This document shows positions 5,787-58,086 of a stretch of DNA of 64,000 nt, in pieces. Each line of letters opens with the position of its first letter. Position 1 is the stretch's first letter. The notes beneath the pieces were generated by a model, which did no database searches, was not told where the DNA came from, and saw only the letters and a list, made by a program, of their open reading frames with translations. The position numbers and the translations under genes were made by a program. This stretch comes from an uncultured Acidimicrobiales bacterium (lineage in GTDB: Bacteria; Actinomycetota; Acidimicrobiia; Acidimicrobiales; SHLQ01), in NCBI GenBank assembly GCA_938038815.1, contig CALHTF010000004.1, positions 6,824 through 70,823 of the forward strand. Direction: 5' to 3'.

Positions 5787-5999
5787 TCGACCGGTTTACC
5801 GTTGGTGCACGACTTGTGCAAAGTTCCAACAAGTCAGCCGAGGCGCCATCTCACATTTTGTTGCATACTTGGCGAGTGCCGTCGTCCCACGGCACCCACG
5901 GTTTCCCCTGGTGTGGAAGGAACCGTAAAAGAAGTTGAAGGCTTTGCCTTCGGCTTGGTGGTTGGCTCGTTCATCCTGGCGGGTGAGCATTTTGGCCAA

Positions 6000-6020
6000 C
6001 CACCAAGCACTTCTTGGTGG
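6000..6020 (-). terminator. Hairpin downstream of the helicase gene (candidate terminator)
   Basis: CCACCAAG-cactt-CTTGGTGG, a perfect 8-bp stem 24 nt beyond the helicase stop. There is no strong U-tract. Confidence 0.35.
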
Positions 6021-6043
6021 CGGCCATTGGGGACAGTGGTTGG

Positions 6044-29938: not shown

Positions 29939-31486
29939 ATGGCAATCATTCATAAAAGTCCGCTGCCCGACGTCGACATTCCGAGCGAGCCGATCACTAC
30001 CTATGTGTTGCGTGCCGGGCTCGCCACGCCCGACCGCATCGCCATGCACTGCGGTGCGAGCGGCAAGCAGTACACATACCAACAGCTGAGCGACGCTATC
30101 CACGGCTTTGCCGGTGGGCTGGCTGCTCGCGGATTGGGCAAGGGCGATGTCATTGCCCTCATGTCGCCCAACGACCCCGACTTCGCCGTCGTGTTTCACG
30201 GTGCCGCCGTCGCCGGGGTAACCGTCACTACCCTCAACCCGACCTACACCGCCGACGAGTTGCGCCATCAGCTGTCGGATTCGGGCGCCAAGCTTATGGT
30301 GTCGTTTCCGGCGACCATCCCGCTCGCCGCCCAAGCGATCGACGGGACGGCGGTCACCGAACTGGTAGCGATGGGCGAGGCCGAAGGGGCGACCCCCATG
30401 GCCGATCTGCTCGCCGCTGACCCGATCACCCAGGTCGACGTCGATGTCGACGACCACGTGGTTGTTCTGCCGTACTCGTCGGGAACTACCGGGCTGGCGA
30501 AGGGCGTGATGCTCACCCACAAGAACCTGGTTGCCAACCTCGCTCAGTGCGAGCACGCGGTTGTGCTCGACGACGGCGATGCGCTGCTCGCCGTGCTGCC
30601 CTTCTTCCATATCTATGGCATGCAGGTGCTGATGAACTACGGCCTTTCCAACGGTTCGACCGTGGTCAGCCTGCCGCGGTTCGACCTGGTGCGGGCGCTC
30701 GAGCTGATCGGCGAGTTTAAGATCGCCAAGTTCTTCGCCGTTCCGCCGATGGTCCTGGCGCTCGCCAAGCAGCCGATCATCGACGAGTACGACATCTCAT
30801 CGCTCAATCTCGTGGTGTCGGGCGCGGCTCCCCTCGGTGCCGAACTGGCCGACGAAGCCTCCGCCCGAATCAACGCACCGGTGGTGCAGGCCTACGGCAT
30901 GACCGAACTTTCGCCGGTCAGTCACTGCACACCCCCCGGCAAGAACATGCCCGGCTCGTCGGGTGTCACGATTTCGAACACCGAGTGCCGGTTTGTCGAC
31001 GAAGAAGGCAACGATCAAGACGTCGGTGCCGACGGCGAAATGTGGGTCCGTGGCCCGCAGGTGATGAAGGGGTACCTCAACAACGACGAGGCCACCACCA
31101 ACACCATCGACGCCGACGGCTGGTTGCACACCGGCGACGTTGCGCACATCGACGAAGCCGGAAACGTGTTCATCGTCGACCGGGTGAAGGAACTCATCAA
31201 GTACAAGGGTTTCCAAGTGCCGCCCGCCGAACTCGAAGCGCTCATCATCACCCACGATGCGGTGGCCGATGTGGCGGTTATCGGTATCCCCGAGGTCGAA
31301 GCCGGCGAGTTGCCGAAGGCATTCGTGGCACTGAAACCGGGCGCCGAGGCCACCGAAGACGAAATCATGGAGTTCGTCAAAGGCCAGGTTGCGTCCTACA
31401 AGCAGATCCGCTTGGTCGAGTTCATCGACGAAATCCCCAAATCTGCCTCCGGAAAGATCCTGCGCCGCTTCTTACGTGACAAGTAG
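29939..31486 (+). CDS. AMP-dependent acyl-CoA ligase (4-coumarate-CoA / fatty-acid-CoA ligase family)
   Basis: LPYSSGTTGLAKGVMLTH, QAYGMTE, GWLHTGDVAHIDEAGNVFIVDRVKELIKYKGFQVPPAELE and PKSASGKILRR. Confidence 0.85.
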   Translation: MAIIHKSPLPDVDIPSEPITTYVLRAGLATPDRIAMHCGASGKQYTYQQLSDAIHGFAGGLAARGLGKGDVIALMSPNDPDFAVVFHGAAVAGVTVTTLNPTYTADELRHQLSDSGAKLMVSFPATIPLAAQAIDGTAVTELVAMGEAEGATPMADLLAADPITQVDVDVDDHVVVLPYSSGTTGLAKGVMLTHKNLVANLAQCEHAVVLDDGDALLAVLPFFHIYGMQVLMNYGLSNGSTVVSLPRFDLVRALELIGEFKIAKFFAVPPMVLALAKQPIIDEYDISSLNLVVSGAAPLGAELADEASARINAPVVQAYGMTELSPVSHCTPPGKNMPGSSGVTISNTECRFVDEEGNDQDVGADGEMWVRGPQVMKGYLNNDEATTNTIDADGWLHTGDVAHIDEAGNVFIVDRVKELIKYKGFQVPPAELEALIITHDAVADVAVIGIPEVEAGELPKAFVALKPGAEATEDEIMEFVKGQVASYKQIRLVEFIDEIPKSASGKILRRFLRDK

Positions 31487-32340: not shown

Positions 32341-33555
32341 TCAGCTACCGAGAGGCAAGATTGCGGTGTCGGGGATGATGCTCACGTCGAGCCCATCGGG
32401 AACCGGGTGCTCAAAGTCGGGGTACTGGCGCACGGCGTTCTCGCGGAACTTGGTGGTGCGGTGCACCGGATCTTTGTCGTACTCGGGGATGACCTGGTCG
32501 CCGAAGAGCTCGATCATTTCTTCGATCTCGTCGTGTTGCATGCCTTCGATCGGCAGACCGAACGCAACTTGGTCACAGCCCACGTCTTGGTAGGCAGCGA
32601 GTTGTTCGGCGACCTCTTCGGGGTTGCCGCACAACATGTAGCCACCGGCGATTGCCATGTCGAGGATCTCGTCGGTCCACTCGACGTCGCGTGGCGGGTC
32701 GGGCCATACGATGGCGTCGGGCGACTTCGGCATCGAGTCGTGGTAGAGGTTCACCATGGTGACCAGGTAGCCGCGGCCTTTGGCCTTGGCGATCTCGCGG
32801 GCCCGTTCGCGGTCCTTCAAGCAGATGACGGCGTTGGTCATCATCACGTTGTTGTTCTGGTACTGGCCGATTTGTTCGACCACGTTCTCTGCGCCCTCTT
32901 TGTACGAGTCGACCCGGCCTTTGAGGTTGTGGATCGGCTCGAAGTTAAAGGCGATGGCGCCGATGCCTAGCGAGCCGGCGATGGCGAAGGTTTGCGGGTT
33001 ACCGCACGCGACCCAGATCGGCGGGTGACCCTTGCCGTAGGGCTTGGGCAAGATGTTGTGTGGGGTAGGAACCGACCAACCATCGCCTTCGAACTGGTAG
33101 TCCTTGACTTCCCACATACGCGGGATCTCACGAATGACTTCGTTCCACATGGCCTTGGTCTGGGAAAGCTCGGTGCCGCTGAAGGTAGCGAGTTCGTGGC
33201 TGCCAGCGCCTCGGCCAGTGCCGAACTCAAACCGCTGGTTGGTCATGTGGTCGAGCATGGCGGCCCGCTCGGCGAACCGGACCGGGTGCTCTTTGGTCAC
33301 CGGGAAGCTGGTTATGGCTGACCCGACATGGATCTGTTCGGTTTGGGCGGCAACCCAACCCATCACTGGCGCGGGCGCTGCCATGTGGCTGTATTCGACC
33401 AGTCCGTGATGTTCGCCGAACCAGGCGTACTTCCAGTTGTGCTTGTCGGCCAGCACGGCGTATCCGGCCTCGCGCATCAGCTCGGTGTGCTCGGACTCTG
33501 TGTCGTGGGCCGCTGGGCCAGGGGTGTAGCCGTTACTGAAGACGCCGAATTCCAC
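32341..33555 (-). CDS. LLM-class flavin-dependent monooxygenase/oxidoreductase
   Basis: MEFGVFSNGY...WFGEHH...FEFGTGRG... is a luciferase-like TIM-barrel pattern. 404 aa. Confidence 0.8.
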   Translation of the reverse strand: MEFGVFSNGYTPGPAAHDTESEHTELMREAGYAVLADKHNWKYAWFGEHHGLVEYSHMAAPAPVMGWVAAQTEQIHVGSAITSFPVTKEHPVRFAERAAMLDHMTNQRFEFGTGRGAGSHELATFSGTELSQTKAMWNEVIREIPRMWEVKDYQFEGDGWSVPTPHNILPKPYGKGHPPIWVACGNPQTFAIAGSLGIGAIAFNFEPIHNLKGRVDSYKEGAENVVEQIGQYQNNNVMMTNAVICLKDRERAREIAKAKGRGYLVTMVNLYHDSMPKSPDAIVWPDPPRDVEWTDEILDMAIAGGYMLCGNPEEVAEQLAAYQDVGCDQVAFGLPIEGMQHDEIEEMIELFGDQVIPEYDKDPVHRTTKFRENAVRQYPDFEHPVPDGLDVSIIPDTAILPLGS

Positions 33556-33650: not shown

Positions 33651-34664
33651 TTACCTCGCCGAAACTCCGTTGTAGGGGGCGCCCGCTTCTTGCCATTCGG
33701 CATACATCGCAAAGAACTCCTCGCCGAAGGGGTCCTTTCCTTGTAGTGGCATGGCGGCGCGGCGTATGGTCCAGTCAAATGGGGCCAATGCAACGGCGGT
33801 TTCGAGGTTGCGGGCGGCCCCGGCCTCGTCGCCGGCCCGGCGCAGGTGGGCGCCGATCCGAAAGTACAAACGGGCTTGTTCGTGCTCGGGGCCCAAGTCG
33901 TCAACCGCACCTTGGGCAGCGGCCGCGTCCATCATCGTCGTGCCTTCGGTAACCCACTGGCGGATCAGATCCTTTTGCGGACCCGACTCGATACCGGTGA
34001 AGTCTTTGAACGTGTCGGTGCCGAAGGCGACCCAGTTGGGTTGTACGATGCGATCGTGCTCGTCGATCAAAATGACCGTCGGTACGTTCGAGATGGCGTA
34101 GAGCTCGGTCAACAGATGGTCGGCATCGACGAGCAGGGGATAGGTAATGCCCTCGCTCGCTTCGCGGATTGCGTCGACGTTTTCGTCGATCGCTACACCG
34201 AGGACCATGAAGTTCTGGTCGGCGAGTTCTTCGTGGAGTTCCTGCCACCCGGGCAGGTCAAAGAGGCATCCTCACCAACTGGAAAAGGCGAAGAGCAGCT
34301 TCTTCTTGCCGGCGTAGTCGCTCAACGAGCGGGTGACCCCGTTGAGGTCGGGGAGCGAGAACCCGGGCGCCGACAAGTCGTTGATCGCCTGGTGTCGTGC
34401 GCTTCGAGGTGCGCCGATGGCTACGAGGTTCGATTCGTCGTCGAGTACCCATGGCCGGCCCACCAGATCGGCGACGGCACGGACATCGATTAGGTCGGCC
34501 GGGTCGTTGTGGTCGCCCTCGGGAAACAGCGCGCTGGTATCAGCAACGGGGACGCATTGGTCGTCTTGGCACAGGCCTTCGGGCCGCAGTTTCCAGCCGA
34601 TTGTTGCTTCGAGTTCGTTGCGGGCCACGAGCGGGCCTTCGAGAAGTGCAGTCGGAATACCCAT
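33651..34664 (-). CDS. Thioredoxin-fold (TlpA/ResA/redoxin-like) protein with an in-frame TGA at the active site; candidate selenoprotein
   Basis: Track ORFs 34272-34664 and 33651-34208 share one frame and are interrupted only by TGA at 34272-34274. My read-through translation is ...GKKKLLFAFSSW-[TGA]-GCLFDLPGWQELHEELADQNFMVLGVAIDE...NVPTVILIDEHDRIV. The TGA falls where the redoxin family has its first redox Cys. Confidence 0.55.
34241..34274 (-). promoter_or_regulatory. Candidate bacterial SECIS-like hairpin immediately 3' of the in-frame UGA
   Basis: On the mRNA: UGA, then 14 nt, then CCUGCC-CGGGU-GGCAGG (perfect 6-bp GC stem at 34252-34257 / 34241-34246 with a G/U-containing 5-nt loop). 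The loop begins 20 nt (spans ~21-25 nt) 3' of the UGA, within the range described for bacterial SECIS elements. Not validated by any model. Confidence 0.35.
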
Positions 34665-34752: not shown

Positions 34753-36453
34753 GTGGACGATGATCAGACCAACGAACGGGGCGGTAGCGCGGTGACGCGT
34801 CGACTCGGCCTTGCCTTGCTTGGTTTGGTGGGAATCTCGGTACTCGGATCGCTTCTAGTCGGCACCCAACTGGTTCGGGTTTCCGGCCTCAACGCGAACG
34901 ATCTTGCCTCGCGACTCGGGTTTCTCCGGATGGCGTACATCCTGGTTTCGGGTGTCGTCGCAACCGCCGCACTGGTTGCATGGGCGTTGCTCGTTCGGCC
35001 GCTAAAGGACCGCTTGGCCGCCATCCGCCGGGTAGCGGATTCGCTGGCCGAAGGCCGCATCCAAGCCCCAATTGGCGACCAAGCAGACGATGAAGTCGGC
35101 GAGGTTGCCCGCAGTCTTGATCGACTGGCCGAGGCAATCACGGTCGATCTTCGCACCCGACAAACCAGCGAAGACGAGCTTCGTCGCAAGGCGTCGTTCG
35201 ACGAACTCACCGGCGCCGCCAACCGCGCATCGCTCACCGTCGAGCTCGAAAACACCTTGGCCGACAAAGAGATGGCCGATCACGCTGCACTGCTCAGTAT
35301 CGACCTCGACCGGTTTAAAGAACTCAACGACACCTTTGGTCACCAGGCCGGTGACGAAGCGCTCAAGATCGTGACCGAACGCATCAAGGCTGCTGTGAAG
35401 GCCAGTGACGTGGTGGCCCGCATGGGTGGCGACGAATTCTTGGTGCTGCTGCGCAATGTGAGCCCGGTCGAAGTCGCCGAGGTGGTTGCCCGTCTGCGGG
35501 CCAGCATGGGTCGGGACGCAACGATCGGAAACAAACGACACAAGCTGTTGTTCAGCATCGGTACCACCCAGATCGGTTACGGCGTCGATGCCGAGTTCTT
35601 GCTTCGCGAAGTCGATATTGCGATGTACCAAGACAAAGAACGCAACCGCCGTCTGCGAGAGCAGGCCCGGGTGAATTCGAGCGACGAGGTGGTCGATGTG
35701 CTGGGCGACGGTCATCTCGACATCCGCTTTCAGCCAATCTTTCATATCGGTAACGGCCAGGTTGTGGGCGCCATGGTGATGCCGTACTGGCTCAACACGA
35801 CCGGTGGTGTGCTCGAGCCGAGTCAGTTCCGCGCCATGATCGACGACACCCCGCAGGGTGTTGCCTTCGACCAGGCCGCCATCGGCCAGATGCTCGCCCA
35901 CGTGCACGCCTTGGCCTACAACCATGTTCTGCCCGCCAACTTTGTGATCGTGATGAAACCGACGTTGGCGACCCTTGGCGAGTCGAGCTTCCCGGCGTGG
36001 CTGCAAAGCGTGATGGCCAAGCGTGGCCTCCCGCCTTCGATGCTGCAGATGACGATCAGTCGCTCGAGTGTCGAGAACGACCCAGCCGGAATTCGCGAAC
36101 TCCACCGCATTGGCGTCAAGATGGCGGTCGAAGACCTCGGCATCCTTGCCATGCAGGACGATCGGGTCGGTCAGCTGCAAATGACCCTGGGCATGATCGG
36201 CCAACGCCGACTCCGCGACTTGGCTCGCAACAAGCTGGCTCGTCCGGCCATCATGTCGCTGCTCAGCCTCGCGAGCCAGGCAAATCTGGTTGTTGTGGCC
36301 GACGGCGTCGACGAAGAACGAGACTTCGCTGAACTCGGCCCGCTCGGTATTGGCTTTGCTGCGGGCGACTACCTGGCGCGCACGATGAACGTGGACGATC
36401 TCCGCCGCGGCCTCTCGGCTCAGCAGCAGGCCACCCAAAACAAGGCGGCGTAA
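34753..36453 (+). CDS. Membrane HAMP-GGDEF-(degenerate EAL) c-di-GMP signalling protein
   Basis: N-terminal TM helices and a HAMP-like segment. GGDEF domain with DELTGAANR and an intact RMGGDEFLVLL. The EAL-like C-terminus reads GAMVMPYW where the family has GxEALxRW, with other catalytic positions also changed. Confidence 0.85.
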   Translation: MDDDQTNERGGSAVTRRLGLALLGLVGISVLGSLLVGTQLVRVSGLNANDLASRLGFLRMAYILVSGVVATAALVAWALLVRPLKDRLAAIRRVADSLAEGRIQAPIGDQADDEVGEVARSLDRLAEAITVDLRTRQTSEDELRRKASFDELTGAANRASLTVELENTLADKEMADHAALLSIDLDRFKELNDTFGHQAGDEALKIVTERIKAAVKASDVVARMGGDEFLVLLRNVSPVEVAEVVARLRASMGRDATIGNKRHKLLFSIGTTQIGYGVDAEFLLREVDIAMYQDKERNRRLREQARVNSSDEVVDVLGDGHLDIRFQPIFHIGNGQVVGAMVMPYWLNTTGGVLEPSQFRAMIDDTPQGVAFDQAAIGQMLAHVHALAYNHVLPANFVIVMKPTLATLGESSFPAWLQSVMAKRGLPPSMLQMTISRSSVENDPAGIRELHRIGVKMAVEDLGILAMQDDRVGQLQMTLGMIGQRRLRDLARNKLARPAIMSLLSLASQANLVVVADGVDEERDFAELGPLGIGFAAGDYLARTMNVDDLRRGLSAQQQATQNKAA

Positions 36454-41063: not shown

Positions 41064-44000
41064 ATGTCTTTGCTGCCCAACAGCACCAGATTTTCTCTTC
41101 GTTTCACTGCGGCGGCAACGATTCAGTCAGCCGATGAAGCTGCGCTCGAAGCGCTTGGCTTTTCCCAAGACGAACTTGTCGATCGCGGGCTCGGTCTCCT
41201 GCACCCCAGCGATCGCCCGGTCGTCGGAGGGTTTCTCAAGGCCTTGCGTACCAGCCGCGACCAATCGACGTTCCCCGACCCGATCGAGGTTCGCTTCTTC
41301 GCGGCCGACGGCGCCATCGTCGTTTGCACCGCGACCGGCATCAACCGTCTCGACGACGACGCGACGCTCGAGTTGGCCTGTGTGGTGGGCGGGGCCGACG
41401 ACGGGTCCGAGACTCCCGACGAAACCCTGCACCCCGCAGCCGACTTCGAACCGATCGATCCGCCGCTCCCCAACGACATCGGCATCTTGTTGCGCGACAA
41501 CGACGTCATCGACATGGCGACCGGCCCGGTCCAGGCCAAGCTTGGCTGCCACCCCGACACGCTCATCGGGCTTCACCTGTGGGAGTTGGTTCACGACGAC
41601 GACGAACCAGCGTTTCGCGATCACCTAAGCGAGCTCGATGAGTCGGCGGTCGGAACCCACGCCCACTACGGCGAACTTCGGTTCGTCTCGCCCGAGGGTC
41701 ACGACCATGTCGTCGATGCCGTGGTGCTGGTTCGCCCTTCAGGACTCGTGGTTCGCGCTCGAGAAGTCGAGGCGGGGTCGTCTTCTCTCGATACCGACCT
41801 CGGCGACGTTCGCGTCGACGCCGCCGTCGTGTTTGTCGACGAGGAGTTTTCGGTCACCTATGTGAGCGACTCGTTCGCGTCGGTCACGGGTCGAGCGGCC
41901 ACCGGATCGATTGGCGTCGAGCTGATGTCGGTCGTGCACCCGATCGACCGGCCGTACGTGCAACAACGACTCGAACAGCCGGCGCTCGACGGCGAGATCC
42001 ATGGCTTTGTTCGGATTCTCGCCGACGACGGCACCTGGGGCTGGTTTGAGGTTCTTGGACGGAACTATCTCGACGACCCGACGGTCGGCCAGATCGCCCT
42101 GCATGTCACTCCGGCCGAGACGGCTGCGCCGTCGCCCGCAGACTGGGCGGGCCAACGGGGTTCGTTCAGCACCGACATCGACGGCGCAGTGTGTTTCGTA
42201 AACGCTCGCCTGCTCGACGTTGTGGGGCCACCCGAGGCCCATTCGCCCCAGTGGCAAGCCCTGCTCGAGACCGACGAGGACGGCGTTGGCGAAATCGTGG
42301 CTGTCGATGTGCCGGGGGCCACCAAACGGTTCCTTCGCAGCCGAGTTCGTGAGGTGTACGGCACCTCGGGTGAGGTAACCGGCACGGTTGGCGTGGTCAC
42401 CGATGTCACCCGGTTCGTCGTTCATGGCGATCTGCCCGAGCCGATCGACACCGCCGATGGTGGGTCGGTCATCGTGCTCGAACAGCGGGTCCTCGAGGGC
42501 AACGGCGATGACGAGTTCGGCGCGACCGAAACCGTTCAGGTGCAGTTCTTGTCGGCCGACCTCGCGCAATTCGTTGGCAACCCCGATCTCCCGAGTCCGC
42601 TGGCCGATGTCTTCACCCCCAAAACCGCCTTGGCCGTGAAGTCGCTGATCTGGCCGTCGCTCACCAGCGACGGTTCGTGGGCAGGCAAGCTGTGGCTTCG
42701 TTCTGCCCGGGGCGCGGCGACCCCGTTCCAGGCGGAGTTCCATGGGGTCGGCGAGGCCAGCACCTATTCGGCGCTCGTCGCGTCGGGGGTCATCACCGGT
42801 ATCGACGCCCCGACCGGCGAGCTCGGCGACATGGGTCTCGATCGTCAGACACTCCTGCTGAGCGGCGCGCCACTCAAGCGCCGGCTCGAACGAGCGCTCG
42901 CTCGTACCGTGGGTGGCAACGCCATGGTCGCCCTCGCCCTGATCGGCGTCGACAGCATCGAACCGGTCGGACTCGGCCGTCCGAACGCCCCGACCCCCTT
43001 TCTCAATCCGGCCGACCGCGCGTTGCTCGAGAACCAGGTTGCCGACCGGCTTACCAGCGCGTGTCGCCACGATGAGATTGCGGCTCGGATCAGCGACGAG
43101 CACTATGCCGTGCTTTCGCAGCGTCTGGGCGACGATATCGATGTCGCCCACCTCACCACCCGTTTAGCCGCCGCACTCGAACCGGCATTCGCACTCGACG
43201 ACCCGGCTCGCTCGTATGAGCTCAGCTTCAGTGTTGGGGTTGCGTCGAGCATCGACGGTCGACGATCGTCCGACGAGTTGTTCCTCAGTGCCGACAACGC
43301 CTTGGCCGCCGCCCGAAATCGGGGCCGGACACGCGTGGTGGTCGCCGACTCGCGACCCCCAGTCGATATCGAGGCCCGCCAGGAACAAGAAGAGGCATTC
43401 CGTGCTGGTCTGCTCGCCGGCGAGATCGACAACGTGTACCAACCAATCGTCGCCCGAGACCAGATCGACGAGCCACCGCACCGCTACGAAGCGCTGGTGC
43501 GGTGGAACGGATCCGACGGCGCGGTTCGAGGGGCCCGTGAGGTTCTCGAACTAGCCAACCGGTTGAACTTGGCTGCCGCGGTTGGCCACCGAGTCGCCGA
43601 CCGGGCACTCGACTTCATGGCGACCGAACAACGCGCCTCCGGCCGGACCCTCGACATGAACATCAACCTCGGCCGGGCGCAGCTGTATGAGCGGGGCTTC
43701 GTCTCGCGCCTCGATGCTTTGCTGCGGTTGTACGACGTGTCGTCGTCGCAGCTCGCGGTCGAACTCTCCGAAACGTTGGTCGTTTCGGCGCTACCCGAAG
43801 CCGAGCGTCTGTTTGGCCAACTGAGCGAGATCGGTGTGCGGGTCGTGGTCGACGATGTCGTCGGTCGACTCTTCGCCGCCGGTGGTCGGGCCTCGACCGC
43901 ATTGGCGGGGGTGGCCGACATGAAGCTCGATCGACGCTTGGTCGAAGGGGTCGGTAGGAACGCCGCCGACACGTCGCAGGTTGCTGGGCTGCTCGCCCGG

Positions 44001-44192
44001 GCCCGCGAACATCACATCTCGGTCACGGCGGTTGGCGTGGCGACTGGCCGCCAGTCGACGTTGCTCGCCGACCTGGGGTGCGATTCGTTGCAAGGGTTCT
44101 TGATCGCCCGGCCCGCCTCGGCGGCCGAACTGACCCTCGCCCCACGATTGTCGCTGGTTGCCAACGAGGAGCCGGAGGCCGGCGTCGCCTAG
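41064..44192 (+). CDS. Cytoplasmic multi-PAS sensor with a degenerate GGDEF domain and an EAL domain
   Basis: 1042 aa with no TM segment. Several PAS-like segments. The GGDEF-like domain reads ARISDEHYAVL at the GGDEF position. The EAL domain has YQPIV...RYEALVRW, NINLG, VELSET and MKLDRRLV, but DDVVGR (family DDFGTG) and TAVGVA (family AEGVE). Confidence 0.8.
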   Translation: MSLLPNSTRFSLRFTAAATIQSADEAALEALGFSQDELVDRGLGLLHPSDRPVVGGFLKALRTSRDQSTFPDPIEVRFFAADGAIVVCTATGINRLDDDATLELACVVGGADDGSETPDETLHPAADFEPIDPPLPNDIGILLRDNDVIDMATGPVQAKLGCHPDTLIGLHLWELVHDDDEPAFRDHLSELDESAVGTHAHYGELRFVSPEGHDHVVDAVVLVRPSGLVVRAREVEAGSSSLDTDLGDVRVDAAVVFVDEEFSVTYVSDSFASVTGRAATGSIGVELMSVVHPIDRPYVQQRLEQPALDGEIHGFVRILADDGTWGWFEVLGRNYLDDPTVGQIALHVTPAETAAPSPADWAGQRGSFSTDIDGAVCFVNARLLDVVGPPEAHSPQWQALLETDEDGVGEIVAVDVPGATKRFLRSRVREVYGTSGEVTGTVGVVTDVTRFVVHGDLPEPIDTADGGSVIVLEQRVLEGNGDDEFGATETVQVQFLSADLAQFVGNPDLPSPLADVFTPKTALAVKSLIWPSLTSDGSWAGKLWLRSARGAATPFQAEFHGVGEASTYSALVASGVITGIDAPTGELGDMGLDRQTLLLSGAPLKRRLERALARTVGGNAMVALALIGVDSIEPVGLGRPNAPTPFLNPADRALLENQVADRLTSACRHDEIAARISDEHYAVLSQRLGDDIDVAHLTTRLAAALEPAFALDDPARSYELSFSVGVASSIDGRRSSDELFLSADNALAAARNRGRTRVVVADSRPPVDIEARQEQEEAFRAGLLAGEIDNVYQPIVARDQIDEPPHRYEALVRWNGSDGAVRGAREVLELANRLNLAAAVGHRVADRALDFMATEQRASGRTLDMNINLGRAQLYERGFVSRLDALLRLYDVSSSQLAVELSETLVVSALPEAERLFGQLSEIGVRVVVDDVVGRLFAAGGRASTALAGVADMKLDRRLVEGVGRNAADTSQVAGLLARAREHHISVTAVGVATGRQSTLLADLGCDSLQGFLIARPASAAELTLAPRLSLVANEEPEAGVA

Positions 44193-48529: not shown

Positions 48530-51500
48530 CTAGTAAGAGCGTGCTGATGCGGGCATCAGGTCGAGCAGTTCGGCGATCACCGACACTGGTCCAGGGCGAG
48601 CAAGACCAAACCCTTGGCCCCGTCGACACCCCATCTCCACCAGCTTCTCGCGATGCTCGGGTTCTTCGATACCTTCGGCGACCACCGCAAGATCAAGGGC
48701 TTCGGCGAGCTTGATGATCGACAACACGATCGCCTCGTCGGTTTCGTCGTCTTGCAGGTTCCGGATAAACGCCTGGTCGATCTTCAAAATGTCGACCGGG
48801 AACCGTTTGAGGTAGGCCAGCGAGCTAAAGCCGGTGCCAAAGTCATCGATCGCCAAGTGCACGCCGAGGGCTCGCAACTCGCTGAGGAGTCGTAACGATT
48901 CCTCTACGTCGGTCATGATCGCCGTTTCGGTGATTTCTAGGCAAAGTTGTTCGGCGGGCAAGCCGCTCTCGGACAGTGCCTCGGCCACCTCGGCCACGAT
49001 GGTTTCGCGTTCGAGTTGGCGGGCCGACAGGTTGACTCGGATCACCAGCGGTTCGGCCCGGCGGCTGTTCCACTCGGCGCCTTGGCGACATGCTTCGGTC
49101 AGTACGAAGCTGCCGATGTCGACCACCAAGCCGGTGTCCTCAGCGATGCCGATGAAAGCTCCGGCGGTCAGCACCCCGTCTTTGGGATGGTTCCACCGAA
49201 CCAGCGACTCGGCGCCGACGATCTTGTTGGTGATCAGGTCGTATTCGGGTTGGTAGTAGACCTCAAGCTCGCCGTACTCGAGCGCCCGTCGCAACTGGCC
49301 TTCGGTCTCGATCCGGTTGGCGACCGCCTCGCGGCTGCTTTCATCGAAGATCTCATAGCGGTGACGGCCCCGTTGCTTGGCCTGATACATGGCGGCGTCG
49401 GCGTGGCGCAGGACATCTTCGTTTGCGGTGTCTTCGGCGCTCGGGAAGGCAATGCCCACACTGCCGGTGACAAAGACCTCGTGGATTCCGGCTCGGATGG
49501 GTTCCTTCAACAGCTCGATCACCCGTTGGGCGACCGACACCGCTTCCATTTCGCCTACCGGCCCCCGAAGCAGCACGACGAACTCGTCGCCGCCGAGTCG
49601 GGCGACCAGGTCGGCTTCTCGAACCGCCAGACGCAGTCGGTCGGCGACGGTTCCAAGGATCTGGTCGCCGACGCTATGGCCGAGTGAGTCGTTCACGACC
49701 TTGAACCGGTCGAGGTCGATCATCAATACCGCTGCGTCGTCGGGTGCGCTGGGTGTGCCGAGACACAGGCCGAGTTCGTCGAGGAAGACTCGACGGTTGG
49801 CGAGGCCGGTGAGTTCGTCGTGGTTGGCTTGAAATTCGAGGCGCTCGCGGTTGCGACGCGCCCGGGTGACGTCTTCGATGTAGGACAGCACGTGTTCGGC
49901 AACGCCATCGGGCGAGGGAATTCGCACCGAGTTGACTCGACCAAACACCGGTCGATGGTCGGGACGGAAGAAGGCGAGTTCTCCCTTATGTCCGTCGGCA
50001 GCGTCGTCGAGCCAGCTGTCTTTGGCGTCGATGTAGTCGCCGAGGCCGTTGCCGATCAGGTGGTCTTCGTCGACGCCAAGGAAGCGAGCGAACGATGGGT
50101 TGGTCGACACGATCTGATTGTCGACATCGGTGACCAGAATGCCGACGGGCGCCTGGGAGAACGATGAGGCGAGGTATCGCTCGGCCTCGAGGCGAGCATC
50201 GAGTTGGCCGACCAGCGCAGCGATGGTTTCCAGCGACCGAATTTCAAGCTCGTGCCAGGCGGCGCCCGGCTCGCGCTCAAAGACCAGCGCGCCCGTGGTT
50301 GCCCCGCCGGTCACCAGCGGCACCAACAGGTACGACCCTTCGGTCAGTTGGTCGCGTCCATCGGGCGGGAACAGTTCGTGGCTGTTGTACACGTGGCCCA
50401 CCGGTTCGGGTAGGGCAACAACATCGGCGAGACCCGAGCCAGGTACGACCGCAAAGTCGCGGACCCGGTGACCCAAGCCTTGGGTTTCTTCGCCCGACCA
50501 GGCTTCGGTTACCGCAATGCGATGGACCGTCTGATCGAACCGCCACCGCATCACGCGGCGCACATCGAAGAAGGCACCGAGGGCAGCAAGAGCTTCGCGG
50601 CTACGGGCTCCTCCGGTGGTTGGGGTGGCGTCGATCAACGTCGCGGCGACCCGGCGAACCAGGTCCTCCACGCTGAGGCGTTGTCGTGATGCGGCCTCGA
50701 CGGTTGTGCGGGCTCGCAGCTGGGTAGCCAGGTTCGCAAAGGTCGACAGGCTCGCCAGTTCGGCGTCGGACCAGGTGCGCCGGTTCGAGGCCACGGCCAG
50801 CACGGTCGCCGCCTGGAACCGACCGACGGCCACGGGGACAAAGGCCACCGCATCGGCAGCGGTGCTCGCCAGGAGGGCTCTGTTCAGTTCGAGTTGGTCG
50901 ACCGTGCCCGTGGTTGGTTGGGTCGAGGAGAACAGGTCGGTGAGGACGGGTGAATCGAGCGGCAAGGTTTGCGCGACGTCAGGAGTGCTGGGCCGGGCGG
51001 GTGCCACCCACTCGTTGACCAACGTCGATTCTCCAGCAGCGAGGGCCGTGTCGCGAAGTTGCAGCACATCGAGCTTGAGTACTCGTGCGATGCGGCCCAT
51101 CGCACGGGTGATGTCTTCGTCGACGGTCTCCCATCGCGATTCGAGGAAGTTCGCGCTGATCGAGCCGAGCAGGGCGTCGAGGCGGGTGGCCTGTTCGTGG
51201 GCTTGTTCGATCGTGCGTTGCTCGGACCGGTCGGTGATGTGCATCGCAAACAGTGGCTCGTGATGGTTCACCCGCTGGAGCGTCATCTCGGTCGCCCGAC
51301 GCTCGTCGCCGTGCTGCGCTTGGGTCTCAAAGGTGAGCGACCGGCGTTCGCCGCGCAGCAACTCGCTTAGGGCGCTGAGGGTTTCGGACGGTAGGTCTTT
51401 GAGGTTGGCAAAGATTGGCTTGCCGACCAGCGCGGCGGGCTTGTGGCCAAAGGCATCGGTGGCCGCTGGGTTGGCGGTCAGGATCCGCAGTTGCTGGTCG

Positions 51501-51676
51501 AAGAGCACCACCGGGTGAGGCGACCCCCGAAACGATGCTCGGACCAACGCGAGCAGATCCGAGGAGGTACTCGGTGCTGTCGGTGTTCGTGGTTGCGAAT
51601 TTCCCACCAAAGCCATACTCGCTTTATCGGCAGAACCACCCCGGTTGCTTGAGCGCTGATCGGCAAACGACCCCAT
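48530..51676 (-). CDS. Multi-PAS/GAF sensor diguanylate cyclase/phosphodiesterase (intact GGDEF and EAL)
   Basis: 1048 aa with DELTGLANRR, RLGGDEFVVLL, YYQPEYDL...GAESLVRW, EITETA, DDFGTGFSSLAYLKRFPVDILKIDQAFI, AEGIEEPE and GQGFGLARP. Confidence 0.85.
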   Translation of the reverse strand: MGSFADQRSSNRGGSADKASMALVGNSQPRTPTAPSTSSDLLALVRASFRGSPHPVVLFDQQLRILTANPAATDAFGHKPAALVGKPIFANLKDLPSETLSALSELLRGERRSLTFETQAQHGDERRATEMTLQRVNHHEPLFAMHITDRSEQRTIEQAHEQATRLDALLGSISANFLESRWETVDEDITRAMGRIARVLKLDVLQLRDTALAAGESTLVNEWVAPARPSTPDVAQTLPLDSPVLTDLFSSTQPTTGTVDQLELNRALLASTAADAVAFVPVAVGRFQAATVLAVASNRRTWSDAELASLSTFANLATQLRARTTVEAASRQRLSVEDLVRRVAATLIDATPTTGGARSREALAALGAFFDVRRVMRWRFDQTVHRIAVTEAWSGEETQGLGHRVRDFAVVPGSGLADVVALPEPVGHVYNSHELFPPDGRDQLTEGSYLLVPLVTGGATTGALVFEREPGAAWHELEIRSLETIAALVGQLDARLEAERYLASSFSQAPVGILVTDVDNQIVSTNPSFARFLGVDEDHLIGNGLGDYIDAKDSWLDDAADGHKGELAFFRPDHRPVFGRVNSVRIPSPDGVAEHVLSYIEDVTRARRNRERLEFQANHDELTGLANRRVFLDELGLCLGTPSAPDDAAVLMIDLDRFKVVNDSLGHSVGDQILGTVADRLRLAVREADLVARLGGDEFVVLLRGPVGEMEAVSVAQRVIELLKEPIRAGIHEVFVTGSVGIAFPSAEDTANEDVLRHADAAMYQAKQRGRHRYEIFDESSREAVANRIETEGQLRRALEYGELEVYYQPEYDLITNKIVGAESLVRWNHPKDGVLTAGAFIGIAEDTGLVVDIGSFVLTEACRQGAEWNSRRAEPLVIRVNLSARQLERETIVAEVAEALSESGLPAEQLCLEITETAIMTDVEESLRLLSELRALGVHLAIDDFGTGFSSLAYLKRFPVDILKIDQAFIRNLQDDETDEAIVLSIIKLAEALDLAVVAEGIEEPEHREKLVEMGCRRGQGFGLARPGPVSVIAELLDLMPASARSY

Positions 51677-53549: not shown

Positions 53550-53819
53550 ATGTCCGAAGTACTGATCATGAACAAAGAGCAAATGGTTACCCTCAAGCGG
53601 GATTTCTTGGCCCGCGCCGAGCAGGTACAAGAGTTGCGCAACGGCCTGCAACGCACCCTCGACGGGACCACGTGGGATGGGCGACGGGCCCGAGAGTTTC
53701 GCCAGCTTTGGGTCGCAGAGTTTGCACCGAATCTGGTCAAGCTCGAGCAAGCGTTGCGCGAGAACGGGCGCTTCATTGGCAAAGAGCGCGCCAACGCCAT
53801 CACCGCGATGGATTCCTAG
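53550..53819 (+). CDS. WXG100-family (ESAT-6-like) small protein
   Basis: 89 aa from ATG 53550, preceded by a purine-rich agagaagagag. Predicted helix-turn-helix hairpin with central W-x-G (LDGTTWDGRRAREF, tgggatggg at 53673-53681). Lies directly upstream of the FtsK/SpoIIIE ATPase. Confidence 0.7.
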   Translation: MSEVLIMNKEQMVTLKRDFLARAEQVQELRNGLQRTLDGTTWDGRRAREFRQLWVAEFAPNLVKLEQALRENGRFIGKERANAITAMDS

Positions 53820-53850
53820 ACCACCACCAGAGGCGAGGGTTGGGCGACGC

Positions 53851-56800
53851 ATGAACGTCGTCGTCGAACACCTCGCCCGGCGGCGGGTCGTGATGATCGC
53901 GACGGCCGGGCCGGACCATCTGGTGGGCGATCTGGCGCTGGCGATCGCCAGCGGCGGAGGACACTGGGCCGACTTCGCGACCGCGACCCGATTCGAGATC
54001 GACGGAGTCGCTCAGGAGGCGTCGACGCCCCTTGGTGAGTCGGGGCTCCGGCCCGGGTCGGTCGTGCGGCACGCTGTCGAGTCGCCGACCTTTCATGACC
54101 GCGGCGGAGCCGCCCTCGGTGTGCTCGACGTGGTCGGTGGCCTCGAGTCGGGCCAGTCGCTCACGTTGCGCCCTGGCCGTTATGTGGTCGGACGCCTTCG
54201 CAGTGCCGACCTCACGCTCGAGTCGGCGACCGTTTCGCGACGACATGCCCGCCTCGATGTGTCGGCGGGCGGCGACCTTTCGATCACCGACCTCGGCTCG
54301 CACAATGGCACTGCGGTGCTGGGTCGATCCGCACGTGCCCTTTCGGTCGCGGGCGAACCACAACCGCTGGCGTGGGCGAGCCACGTCCGTGCCGGATCGG
54401 TAACCCTGGCGGCTCACGAGCCACCCACCGACGATGCGCCCCATCACCTCGCATCCCAACCGGTCTTTGGTGGAGTCGGTAGTCGACCGGTGTTTAACCG
54501 TCAGCCGAGGCCGCCCCTGGGTGGGCAAGGCCCACCGATGCACTTTCCCCAGCGGGGTAGGCCTGAGCGCTATTCACCTCGGTTCTCGTGGGCGGCGATC
54601 GTTGCCCCGTTGGTGCTCGGCGTCGCCATGGCGGTGTTGTGGGATCCGCTGTTCGCGCTCTTCATCTTGTTGAGCCCCGTGCTGACCTTGGCGAACTGGT
54701 GGGAGGAGCGTCATCAGCACCGCCGTGAACGCAAGCGTCTCGAGCGAGACTTCACCCATGACCTCGCCCGGTTCGAGACCGAGCTGCAACAGCGCTTGGT
54801 CGTCGAGGCGAATCGCCGCTGGGCGCAACATCACCACCTCGCCGAGGTGCGGCGCCGGGTCGTGGTACCGAGCGTGCGACTATGGGAACGGCGACCTCAC
54901 CACGCTGACTTCCTGCGGGTTTCGATCGGCCGAGGCGACGCGGGGTGGACGCCGCCCACCAACGACGAGCAAGACCAAAAGCCCGAACCCGAGGTGGCCG
55001 AGTTGCTCGCCACCACCTCGATCCTGGCCGACGTGCCGATCGAACTCGACCTCTCGGCGGGCACGGTGGTGGGACTCACCGGCGATCGCCACAGCCGGAC
55101 GAGCCGAGCGGTCGCCCGGTCGATCATCGCGCAGTTGGTCGTGCATCACGGCCCGGCCGACCTGGAGATCGGCGTACTGGTCGAACCAGGAACCGCTCAC
55201 CATTGGGAGTGGGCCAGTCTCGTGCCTCACGCGATCGATCGGCACGGTGCCGGCCGCGGCGGGTTGATTGGAGTGGGCGAACACCGGATCGCCGAGCTGG
55301 CGAACCGGTGGGTTGGCCGCTCGGGCGAATCGGTTCCGGCGGTGGTGGTGGTCGACGGCGAGTCGTTGTTCGCCGGACGCGACGCACCGGTTCGACGGCT
55401 CGCTCAAGCCCCCAACGTCACCCTCGTCGTCCTCGCACCGAACGCCGACTGGCTGCCCGGCCGAACCGAAACGATCGTCGAAACGTCGAGTGAAGCCGGC
55501 GTAGCGGTGGTTCGAACCGTGAACGGGCCGGTCTCTGGGCCGGTACTGCTCGACGGGCTCGCAAGCAGCGCCGCGTGGCGAATTGGCGCCGCGTCGGCCC
55601 GCTTCGACGACCCCGAATTACAAATCGCCGGCGCCGGAGTTCCCGCCAGCACGGGACTCGGTGTGCTCTTTGGCGAACCGGTCACGGCGGAGTCGATCGG
55701 TCGGCGTTGGGCGTCGAGTGCCGCCTCGGGTTCGATCGCCACGCCCATCGGCATCGATGCGTTCGGTACCGTCATGCTCGACCTCATCGCCGACGGACCT
55801 CACGGTTTGGTCGGGGGTACGACCGGCTCGGGGAAAAGCGAGCTGCTCCGAACGATGGTTGCTTCCTTGGCCGCCACTGCCGACACCGAGACGGTCTCGT
55901 TTCTCCTCATCGACTACAAGGGCGGCAGTGCCTTCGACGGGTGCGTCGGGCTACCCCACACGGTCGGGGTCGTGACCGACCTCGATCCTGCCCTCAGCGA
56001 ACGCGCCCTGCGGTGTCTCGAGGCCGAACTCGAATATCGCGAACGCCTACTGCGGTCGTTTGCGGTCGAAAGCATCGACGCATATCGAGATCGACGAGCG
56101 GTGGACTCGGGACTCGAACCGTTGCCGCGGCTCGTGGTCGTTATCGATGAGTTCGCGACGTTGCGCACCGAACTACCCGATTTCGTCGACGCGCTTATCG
56201 GCGTTGCGCAGCGCGGCCGGAGTCTCGGGGTACACCTCATCTTGGCCACCCAACGTCCGAGTGGTGCGGTCGATGACAACATCCGAACCAACACCAACAT
56301 TCGGATCGCCCTTCGCGTCCTCGACGCTGCCGATTCGATCGATGTGATCGGGATCGACGATGCGGCGGCGATTGGCGCCGCTCAGCCTGGCCGGGCTTGT
56401 TTGCGGTCGGGTCCAAAGGCGGTCACCACCTTTCAGTCAGCTCGCGTTACCGGCCCCGCGCCGAGCGACGCCGACCACAACTTGGTCGTCGTGCCGACCT
56501 GGCTTGGCGAGCCGGTAGAGCCCTTCGACCCCACGCAGCGCCAGGCCGATGGGGTCACCGAGCTCCAAGGTCTGGTCGAGGCGACGCTCGAGGCTCACGC
56601 CGCGACCGGCCACGCGCTTCCTCGGCGACCGTGGCCCGACCCGTTGGCGGCTGACCTCATGTTGGGTGATGTCGGCGGGCATCCCGATTCGTTTGGGCTC
56701 GTCGACGATCCCGAACAACAACGCCAGTTCCCCCTTAGGTGGGAAATGAGTGACGCAAACGCGGTCGTCGTTGGAGCGAACCGGAGCGGAAAGACCACCG

Positions 56801-58086
56801 CGTTGCGCTCGATGGTGGTCGCCGCGACTATCGAGCGATCGCCCGACGAGCTCCACGTGTACGTCGTCGACTTCGGCAAAGGGGACCTGGTCGACCTCGG
56901 CGATCTCGCCCATGTGGGGGCGGTGGTGACCGCGGCGGAGACCGAACGCCAAGAACGATTGATGCGGCGACTAGCCGATGAAGTGCACGATCGGCGAGCG
57001 ACCGACCCCGCCGTGGTTGCCGCCCGGCCGCGGATTCTGCTGGTTGTCGACGGCCTCGACACCATGCGCCGCCGCCACGAGGACAACTACGCGTTGGCCG
57101 ACCGTTTCGAGTCGGTGTTCCTCGACGGGTCGGCGGTGGGTGTCCACACGGTTGTGGCCACCAGCTCACCGCTCGGTCTGGCCAACCTGTCGACCGCAAT
57201 CTCGTTCCAGCTGTACCTCCGGTTGAGCGATCCGTCGGAGCTGCGCGAGATCGGGGTACGAGGCACGGTCGATCCTGAGCCGCCCCCGGGCCGGGGCCAC
57301 CTCGGACCGCACGGTCTCGAAGCTCAGGTGGCGGTAGTCGACCAGGCCGGTTGGGCCATCGCGCTCGCTCATCGGGCGCAGGTGGGCCCGCAACAGGTCG
57401 GCGTGCTCGGCCAAGCGGTCTGCCTGGACGAACTGTTTGACGAATGGGACGAGGACACGACTGGCCAGAACCGTGTCGAAGGTCTGGTGGTGGGCCGCTC
57501 AGCGAACCAGCTCGAGCCGGTTGTGGTCGCCGGCGAGGTTGGCCAGCATCTGCTCGTGGTGGGCCCGGCCCGATCGGGTCGATCGAACGCTCTCCAGGTG
57601 CTTGCGGCGAGCGTTCGGCGGATGGGAGCACGGGGCGTGTGGCTCGGCGACCACCGCGACTGCGAACACGGTAATTCCGAACATTGTGATCCCGAACATA
57701 GTGATCCCGAACGGATTGGCTACGGCGATCTGCACTGTCTCGCATCGTCCGAGTGGGCGCCTACCTATCTTTTTGTCGACGATGCGGCTGGGGTCGACGA
57801 CCCCGATGGTGAGCTCGTTCGGCTGTTGAGCGGCGATGCGGTCACGGTCATCGCCGCCGGCCGGACAGATCGACTGCGGGCTGCGTATGGCCACTGGACC
57901 AACGAGTTTCGACACCAACGCCGAGCGTTGGTGCTGTGGCCCGACATGCTCGATGGGGATCTCATCGGTGTCGACATCGACAGCTCGATCGTTCGGTCGT
58001 TGGCCGACGCGAAGTTTGCTGGTCGAGCGGTGTTGGTGGGCGACGGAGAGCAGATCGTGGTGCAGATCGCCACGGACGAGGCCTAG
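53851..58086 (+). CDS. FHA-domain, membrane-anchored triple FtsK/SpoIIIE ATPase (EssC/EccC-like type VII secretion ATPase)
   Basis: Start at MNVVVEH (ATG 53851). FHA signature LTLRPGRYVVGRLRSADLTLESATVSRRHARLDV...ITDLGSHNGTAVLG. Two TM helices (WAAIVAPLVLGVAMAVLW / LFALFILLSPVLTLANWW). Three P-loop domains: GGTTGSGKSELL + VVVIDEFATL, GANRSGKTTAL + LLVVDGLD, and GPARSGRSNAL. Confidence 0.85.
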   Translation: MNVVVEHLARRRVVMIATAGPDHLVGDLALAIASGGGHWADFATATRFEIDGVAQEASTPLGESGLRPGSVVRHAVESPTFHDRGGAALGVLDVVGGLESGQSLTLRPGRYVVGRLRSADLTLESATVSRRHARLDVSAGGDLSITDLGSHNGTAVLGRSARALSVAGEPQPLAWASHVRAGSVTLAAHEPPTDDAPHHLASQPVFGGVGSRPVFNRQPRPPLGGQGPPMHFPQRGRPERYSPRFSWAAIVAPLVLGVAMAVLWDPLFALFILLSPVLTLANWWEERHQHRRERKRLERDFTHDLARFETELQQRLVVEANRRWAQHHHLAEVRRRVVVPSVRLWERRPHHADFLRVSIGRGDAGWTPPTNDEQDQKPEPEVAELLATTSILADVPIELDLSAGTVVGLTGDRHSRTSRAVARSIIAQLVVHHGPADLEIGVLVEPGTAHHWEWASLVPHAIDRHGAGRGGLIGVGEHRIAELANRWVGRSGESVPAVVVVDGESLFAGRDAPVRRLAQAPNVTLVVLAPNADWLPGRTETIVETSSEAGVAVVRTVNGPVSGPVLLDGLASSAAWRIGAASARFDDPELQIAGAGVPASTGLGVLFGEPVTAESIGRRWASSAASGSIATPIGIDAFGTVMLDLIADGPHGLVGGTTGSGKSELLRTMVASLAATADTETVSFLLIDYKGGSAFDGCVGLPHTVGVVTDLDPALSERALRCLEAELEYRERLLRSFAVESIDAYRDRRAVDSGLEPLPRLVVVIDEFATLRTELPDFVDALIGVAQRGRSLGVHLILATQRPSGAVDDNIRTNTNIRIALRVLDAADSIDVIGIDDAAAIGAAQPGRACLRSGPKAVTTFQSARVTGPAPSDADHNLVVVPTWLGEPVEPFDPTQRQADGVTELQGLVEATLEAHAATGHALPRRPWPDPLAADLMLGDVGGHPDSFGLVDDPEQQRQFPLRWEMSDANAVVVGANRSGKTTALRSMVVAATIERSPDELHVYVVDFGKGDLVDLGDLAHVGAVVTAAETERQERLMRRLADEVHDRRATDPAVVAARPRILLVVDGLDTMRRRHEDNYALADRFESVFLDGSAVGVHTVVATSSPLGLANLSTAISFQLYLRLSDPSELREIGVRGTVDPEPPPGRGHLGPHGLEAQVAVVDQAGWAIALAHRAQVGPQQVGVLGQAVCLDELFDEWDEDTTGQNRVEGLVVGRSANQLEPVVVAGEVGQHLLVVGPARSGRSNALQVLAASVRRMGARGVWLGDHRDCEHGNSEHCDPEHSDPERIGYGDLHCLASSEWAPTYLFVDDAAGVDDPDGELVRLLSGDAVTVIAAGRTDRLRAAYGHWTNEFRHQRRALVLWPDMLDGDLIGVDIDSSIVRSLADAKFAGRAVLVGDGEQIVVQIATDEA
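57664..57714 (+). repeat. 15-nt in-frame tandem repeat (3.4 copies) inside the ATPase gene
   Basis: gaacacggtaattcc / gaacattgtgatccc / gaacatagtgatccc / gaacgg encodes EHGNS-EHCDP-EHSDP-ER. It is visibly less GC-rich than the surrounding sequence. Confidence 0.85.

Follow-up and report, generated by a model that had tools for sequence, protein, structure and literature searches.

A gene with an in-frame UGA at its thioredoxin-fold active site is a probable selenoprotein gene of an uncultured Acidimicrobiales bacterium

We analysed a 64,000-nucleotide stretch of DNA (hereafter the window) from an uncultured Acidimicrobiales bacterium (assembly GCA_938038815.1, contig CALHTF010000004.1, positions 6,824 to 70,823), in which one minus-strand gene at 33651-34664 has a TGA at 34274-34272 as its sole interruption. 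The two minus-strand open reading frames (ORFs) parted by this TGA, 34272-34664 and 33651-34208, lie in the same frame. The complete recoded coding sequence, which we delimited from the sequence and its translation, from homologues and from the ratio of nonsynonymous to synonymous substitution rates (dN/dS), starts with the ATG at 34664, carries the TGA as codon 131 and ends with the TAA at 33653-33651, for a product of 337 aa on read-through. An earlier note on this DNA had described the two frames and their 337-aa product, with coordinates that all proved correct, and had proposed that the TGA encodes selenocysteine (Sec) at the nucleophilic position of a TlpA/ResA-like domain. Alignments, orthologues and codon usage support that proposal, and we put at about 0.93 the probability that the gene truly encodes Sec and specifies a soluble three-domain thiol/selenol oxidoreductase, with UGA (34272-34274, minus strand) decoded as Sec (U131) in the motif F-S-S-W-U-G-C. 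W-U-G-C corresponds to codons 130-133, and Cys133 (34266-34268, minus strand), which is invariant in all homologues, would be the resolving Cys of the U-G-C centre, judging from the CxxC/CxC chemistry of thioredoxin folds.

As predicted for an annotation pipeline, the gene caller had split the window gene, and its 185-aa C-terminal fragment (P0001) is an entry in the protein collection. Taken at face value, the locus would make two separate polypeptides, a 130-aa protein ending with Trp130 and a 185-aa protein starting from Met149, and both ORFs are indeed called mechanically, the downstream one being the entry just mentioned. Such a split would nevertheless sever the thioredoxin fold right in the active site and leave untranslated the most conserved part of the family, residues 132-148 (G-C-x-x-D-L-P-G-W-Q...), and the Cys-type orthologues described below are single polypeptides, so that we give this arrangement almost no credence. 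Full-length homologues of ~346 aa cover 96% of the read-through product.

The central part of this product, residues ~98-215 (34020-34373, minus strand), is a thioredoxin-fold domain of the AhpC-TSA/Redoxin, ResA/TlpA-like type according to Pfam, PDB profile search and Foldseek, in line with the TlpA/ResA/redoxin-like domain that the earlier note had recognised. Pfam matched AhpC-TSA at E 7.6e-16 (residues 99-207) and Redoxin at E 2.2e-12, the PDB profile search retrieved ResA/TlpA/Etrx structures at E 1e-14 to 1e-16 (best 2.5e-16), and Foldseek gave template-modelling (TM) scores of 0.7-0.8 normalised to the target. In the profile alignment, the W-C-G-·-C of the family aligns with the W-C-x-x-C of solved ResA/TlpA/Etrx proteins, HMMER putting a gap in the motif; the TGA therefore takes the place of the N-terminal nucleophilic Cys, in a motif one residue shorter than the canonical one. 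The active-site context proposed earlier thus held for the position of the TGA but not for the motif, which in this family is C-x-C (W-C-G-C) and not W-C-x-x-C. The peroxiredoxin motif P-x-x-x-T/S-x-x-C is absent, the residues before U131 being K-K-L-L-F-A-F-S-S-W with no Pro at -7, and PDB peroxiredoxins matched at E ~2e-3 only, versus 1e-16 for the ResA/TlpA types.

To what the TGA corresponds was read from relatives. A protein search returned 527 of them, and the column analysis used the best 119 full-length sequences (49-58% identical), all from Acidimicrobiia and annotated as peroxiredoxin, redoxin or TlpA family. Cys occupies the TGA column in 119/119, within a near-invariant stretch F-[AS]-S-W-C-G-C-R-Y-D-L-P-G-W-Q, and the window protein retains all family-invariant residues on both sides of the TGA. 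TGA-bearing orthologues are not visible in protein databases because gene callers split them, and orthologues were therefore gathered as DNA. Species-representative genomes supplied 80 loci and metagenomes another 80 (the latter seeded with a Cys-type alignment), which with the window made 161 genes. At the Sec position, 92 of these carry TGA, 58 TGC and 11 TGT, that is, 69 Cys codons. The first 80 loci include 74 TGA genes, all of which contain exactly one in-frame stop, and the frame 3' of the TGA is complete except in the truncated L065 (CAVRZT010000003.1), whose read-through frame stops early, at 230 aa, and which may be a damaged copy. Another locus, L050 (CAXMSE010000027.1), comes from a metagenome-assembled genome (MAG) labelled 'uncultured Gammaproteobacteria', yet its TGA orthologue is typical of the Acidimicrobiia type; the contig may have been binned wrongly. 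Between the window gene and its five closest TGA-bearing relatives (64-69% identical), dN/dS 3' of the TGA is 0.08-0.15, and the intact frame after the apparent stop has therefore been kept as protein.

These data bear directly on a rival reading of the TGA, in which it arose by a recent nonsense mutation, was introduced in error by sequencing or assembly, or marks a pseudogene in decay. A single C-to-A change would turn TGC into TGA, the splitting of the gene by gene callers is what such a reading expects, and no Sec machinery was seen in the window. However, the same TGA recurs in 92 orthologues from different species and samples, which speaks against a read error or a one-off mutation, and no additional disabling lesion accompanies it, the invariant residues being retained and dN/dS remaining ~0.1 beyond the TGA. 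The aligned column is moreover the active-site Cys in 119/119 homologues and lines up, in solved ResA/TlpA structures, with the first Cys of WCxxC, as the earlier note required of its proposal. Since the TGA is shared and the frame maintained, we exclude error, private nonsense mutation and decay, a verdict reinforced by the Sec state reconstructed at the root of the family tree and by hairpin codons that are constrained in TGA genes only (both below); the residual probability of this explanation is very small.

The second line of evidence concerns the RNA. A predicted hairpin of the bacterial selenocysteine insertion sequence (bSECIS) type lies at 34241-34257 on the minus strand, with the stem CCUGCC (34257-34252), the loop CGGGU (34251-34247) and the stem GGCAGG (34246-34241). 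It begins 14 nt after the UGA and is encoded by the codons for D-L-P-G-W-Q-E; the perfect hairpin CCUGCC-CGGGU-GGCAGG announced at that distance is thus present at 34257-34241. The published bSECIS model (PMC13188914) calls for a small apical loop with G then G/U and a spacing of 16-37 nt. With a 6-bp stem, a 5-nt loop, 20 nt from UGA to loop and a folding energy of -9.3 to -10.4 kcal/mol, the hairpin falls within all four published constraints, which bears out its suggested SECIS-like character. Across the family the loop is C-G-G-G-U or A-G-G-U/C-U, with G-G at positions 2-3.

The stem could be a mere by-product of coding, because CUG (Leu) is complementary to CAG (Gln), and CC (Pro) to GG (Trp), and the peptide is invariant. 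The 69 Cys-type orthologues served as the control for this possibility. The Leu-Pro-Gly codons take only 4 combinations in the 92 TGA-type genes versus 20 in the 69 Cys-type genes (Fisher p=1.8e-39), the TGA-type combinations being CTG-CCC-GGG (73 genes), CTG-CCA-GGT (14), CTG-CCA-GGC (4) and TTG-CCC-GGG (1). Leu is encoded by CTG or TTG in 92/92 TGA-type versus 34/69 Cys-type genes (Fisher p 1.8e-16), and Pro by CCG in 0/92 versus 36/69 (Fisher p 4.9e-17). The synonymous restriction is confined to TGA genes, arguing that selection acts on the RNA structure only in the presence of the TGA. In agreement, RNAalifold found the 6-bp hairpin as the sole consensus element of 89 distinct TGA-type sequences and no equivalent consensus structure in the Cys-type set. 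Pairing within the hairpin reaches 98.9% of cells compared with 23-81% for slid controls, and its closing pair covaries (CG 73, UG 5, UA 4, AU 1). Altogether, these comparisons indicate that the hairpin is an RNA element under selection beyond protein-coding constraint. A longer lower stem, seen in the minimum-free-energy fold of the single sequence, was rejected as absent from the consensus of the relatives, and only the 6-bp hairpin is claimed since that lower stem is not conserved. Relative to the E. coli fdhF-type bSECIS and the consensus model, the element is alike in being a stem-loop that closely follows the UGA inside the coding sequence, with a small G-G/U loop and similar spacing. 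It differs from the fdhF type in being very short (6 bp), with no lower stem or bulge detected, and in lying wholly within the stretch that encodes an invariant peptide of the catalytic loop; binding by SelB is here a prediction.

Several observations weigh against Sec decoding, and we gather them here. The 86-nt region around the hairpin did not exceed shuffled sequence in stability (z = 0.19). The five inner pairs of the stem are constant except for one, which changes in a single sequence (C-G to U-G); because these pairs are nearly invariant and partly dictated by conserved amino acids, the RNA evidence consists of the synonymous-codon restriction and one covarying pair. A scan of the window against Rfam gave no matches, a null that is uninformative given that Rfam covers bacterial SECIS elements poorly, as noted in a 2026 preprint on Actinomarina. 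A tRNA scan detected no tRNA gene in the window, hence no tRNA-Sec, and in the flanks of 60 loci a single tRNA-Lys and no tRNA-Sec. Likewise, E. coli SelA, SelB and SelD used as tblastn queries against the window and the 160 loci gave nothing at E <= 1e-3; the flanking DNA of relatives examined for Sec machinery amounts to ~0.9 Mb. Synteny gave no functional clue either: no partner gene recurs across the family, and neighbourhoods are shared among the closest relatives only. Finally, the searched literature contains no 75Se labelling or mass spectrometry for any family member. Within the window and the 160 loci, the Sec machinery is not linked to the selenoprotein gene.

This lack of Sec genes in the examined sequence is also what would be expected if the UGA were read through as Cys, Trp or Gly by a near-cognate or suppressor tRNA, with the hairpin acting as a generic stimulator of read-through, and the window lineage ends few genes with TGA (8/39), which could hint at weak UGA termination. 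Against this, TGA alternates with Cys codons alone at a redox-active site, the classic Sec/Cys signature, the hairpin fits the bSECIS model including the G-G/U determinant of its loop, and the family is curated as a selenoprotein. Furthermore, UGA still ends 8 genes of the window, where there is no other credible in-frame TGA (the remaining candidates are antisense shadows of longer genes), and Sec machinery is reported in the same class: according to the 2026 preprint, tRNA-Sec, selA, selD and a divergent selB occur in all 84 complete genomes of Actinomarina, from another Acidimicrobiia order. We therefore favour insertion of Sec and hold read-through with another amino acid to be quite improbable. 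A global reassignment of UGA was rejected, UGA being the terminator of 8 of the 39 confidently called genes of the window.

Stop-codon usage in the window is in itself uneven. The 39 called genes end with TAG (18), TAA (13) or TGA (8), TGA being unusually rare for actinobacterial sequence of 63% GC. TGA makes up 5/16 stops in the flanks of the closest relatives (L001-L005), 62% of stops in the other Sec-type loci and 76% in the Cys-type loci, the sample from the window clade being small.

The mixture of Sec and Cys forms allowed us to look at the direction of change. In a midpoint-rooted neighbour-joining tree of 158 full-length genes (BLOSUM distances, no outgroup), the inferred root state is Sec, with a minimum of 3 changes to Cys, and the Cys forms lie in three derived clades. 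Within these clades the synonymous-site constraint on the hairpin is relaxed, as expected if the hairpin serves Sec insertion only. This pattern suggests that the Acidimicrobiia family started out with Sec and switched to Cys on at least three occasions, the direction of change being indicative only because the tree is simple. The two forms also differ just 5' of the TGA (34275-34289, minus strand): the Ser preceding Trp is encoded by AGT in 49/92 Sec genes versus AGC in 58/69 Cys genes, and at the residue five positions 5' of the UGA nearly every Sec gene has Ala, whereas Thr predominates among Cys genes. This difference in upstream context could be an effect on UGA decoding or a phylogenetic signal.

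Two further domains flank the thioredoxin fold. The N-terminal one (~95 aa, 34380-34664, minus strand) is strand-rich and contains the invariant columns G-W...P-E-G-L-C32-x4-C37-V/I-P, including the invariant Cys pair of the CQDDQC sequence (codons at 34571-34569 and 34556-34554, minus strand). Pfam gave no match to it, nor did a Foldseek search of the PDB (best E 0.34). Modelled alone from the window's own 130-aa ORF, it reached a predicted local distance difference test (pLDDT) score of 83.6, mostly ~80-95 along the domain. The C-terminal one (~110 aa, 33654-33983, minus strand) is helical and TPR-like, with the motif RRAAMPLxGxDPFG, and was delimited from invariant columns, a helical AlphaFold (AF2) model and weak matches to TPR_2/TPR_12 around residues 253-295. 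The AF2 model of a Cys homologue, P0002 (pLDDT 90.8, predicted TM score 0.89), has three parts, a strand-rich N-terminal domain of ~100 residues, a thioredoxin fold and a helical C-terminal domain, of which only the middle one has relatives among solved structures. Both additional domains had been anticipated from the sequence, the first with its CQDDQC and the second as a helical, TPR-like extension, and this model upholds them. The N-terminal domain may be an undescribed fold with a second redox or metal site. The absence of a signal peptide, also put forward earlier, agrees with Kyte-Doolittle profiles in 19-aa windows (maximum 0.37 in the first 60 aa and 1.06 overall), in which no hydrophobic N-terminus, hydrophobic segment or membrane anchor appears; the protein is therefore soluble and probably cytoplasmic.

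This architecture sets the protein apart from ResA, TlpA, DsbE and Etrx (PDB 1st9, 1jfu, 3gl3, 4hqs), with which it has in common the thioredoxin fold, the Trp before the nucleophile and the site of the nucleophile itself, Sec here taking the place of the N-terminal Cys. Each of those is a single-domain protein, anchored in the membrane or secreted, that uses Cys only, in C-x-x-C, whereas the window protein would be soluble, with a U-x-C one residue shorter and two extra domains. Unlike for ResA/TlpA-type proteins, no ccdA/resBC or Sco-type neighbours were found at the examined loci.

If decoding follows the known bacterial route, SelB loaded with Sec-tRNA(Sec) and GTP would bind the hairpin while the ribosome stands at the UGA, and Sec would be delivered there in competition with RF2. 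In the folded protein, by analogy with thioredoxin-fold chemistry, the U131 selenolate would attack a substrate disulfide (or a peroxide or sulfenate), with Cys133 then resolving the intermediate as the selenenylsulfide of the U-G-C centre. The two outer domains, the N-terminal one bearing the C-x4-C pair and the C-terminal one resembling TPRs, would probably serve in partner recruitment or as an electron relay. A more elaborate proposal, which we consider speculative and rather unlikely as a whole, combines these elements: the protein would be a self-contained cytoplasmic redox machine whose unprecedented N-terminal domain relays electrons, or presents a specific substrate, to a strained U-G-C; Sec would be ancestral across Acidimicrobiia and lost to Cys at least three times; and the SECIS element would be unusual in lying wholly in the L-P-G-W-Q codons, the protein motif and the RNA signal constraining each other.

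The family itself is already known. The 2008 Global Ocean Sampling (GOS) paper describes a "Prx-like (UGC-containing)" selenoprotein (pfam00578) represented by 46 Sec sequences alongside 855 Cys homologues, commoner in non-marine samples, and a 2026 review lists a UGC-containing TlpA-family selenoprotein (cd02966, pfam00578). The GOS 2008 supplement gives the read JCVI_READ_1110824 as ...LLVAFSSWUGCAFDLPGWQELFEEL...MPLRGGDPFGEEFF...SPYHGIP, which shares 99.2% identity with one of the relatives (L073) and, over 242 aa, 55.4% with the window protein (E 2e-96). The window protein has the thioredoxin-fold domain of the GOS family, a U-G-C with Cys counterparts, and sequence homology to it; the U-G-C motif, redoxin domain and C-terminal domain are common to both. 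By homology, then, the window gene is another orthologue of the selenoprotein family published in 2008. It differs from the GOS reads in the residues that follow U-G-C, which are L/I-F/L/Y in the window protein and its closest clade (L001-L005), not A-F or R-Y, and in the shorter N-terminus of this group.

A clear homologue is modelled by the NCBIfam profile NF041054 ('WAxxUGC_long: ResA-like WAxxUGC motif-containing protein', an equivalog of 354 positions), which matches the window protein at E 3.5e-55 and shares with it the U-G-C selenoprotein motif and a similar length. The match spans the N-terminal and redoxin domains (profile positions 5-202, and up to ~320-328 in some relatives). The score of the window protein is 187.7 bits, and nine other members of its clade, of Sec and Cys types, score 163-224, below the curated cut-off of 300, so that the window clade is a sister clade that NF041054 does not capture. 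The motifs differ accordingly in the window (F-S-S-W-U-G-C) and its clade (F-[AS]-[ST]-W-U-G-C) from W-A-x-x-U-G-C, the first position being Phe and not Trp in every clade gene but one (L027). The searched literature yielded nothing under 'WAxxUGC', nor on Sec in Ilumatobacter or Microthrix, and the family is absent from the main texts of the BSepDB and deep-Sep papers.

With regard to annotation, gene callers split the gene and the NF041054 cut-off misses the clade; orthologues in many Acidimicrobiia MAGs, which come from soil, freshwater, marine and sponge-associated sources, are therefore probably mis-annotated as truncated genes or pseudogenes. The published accounts of the family, in the portions consulted, give no taxonomic origin, three-domain architecture, codon-level SECIS evidence or inference of ancestral Sec. 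Our analysis adds the placement of a family of GOS reads in Acidimicrobiia, a class in which Sec use is barely documented; a natural experiment, 92 Sec versus 69 Cys orthologues, on SECIS selection at synonymous sites; the suggestion of ancestral Sec; and an N-terminal domain with no solved structural relative. It leaves the current understanding of selenoprotein biology unchanged.

The genes around the selenoprotein gene were also compared. A luciferase-like oxidoreductase gene (32341-33555, minus strand) adjoins it, and its product is 94-98% identical to the orthologues at L001-L004. The selenoprotein, unlike this neighbour, is only 67-69% identical to its counterparts at the same loci, a strikingly uneven conservation. 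The gap between the two genes is 95 nt in the window versus ~1.5 kb in L001, L003 and L004 (where the gene lies at ~5530-6790), and the comparison indicates that a local rearrangement has occurred between them. Further along, a gene for an AMP-binding protein of the acyl-CoA ligase type (29939-31486, plus strand) lies 2.2 kb from the selenoprotein gene and is convergent with it, and a homologue of ~55% identity is found directly downstream, on the same strand, in ~18-20 loci of the Ca. Poriferisocius type (e.g. L042, 4019-5560), a weak linkage limited to that clade.

On the other side, three large cyclic di-GMP (c-di-GMP) signalling proteins are encoded within 17 kb, at 34753-36453 (plus strand), 41064-44192 (plus strand) and 48530-51676 (minus strand), with the respective architectures HAMP-GGDEF-EAL, PAS-GGDEF-EAL and PAS-GAF-PAS-GGDEF-EAL. 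The HAMP-GGDEF-EAL gene is divergent from the selenoprotein gene, an arrangement kept in L001-L004. Lastly, a gene at 53677-58086 (plus strand) encodes a 1469-aa protein with an FHA domain and an EccC-like FtsK/SpoIIIE ATPase, and is followed at 59255-61213 (plus strand) by one for a subtilase with RTX-type calcium-binding repeats, a pair reminiscent of a type VII secretion locus.

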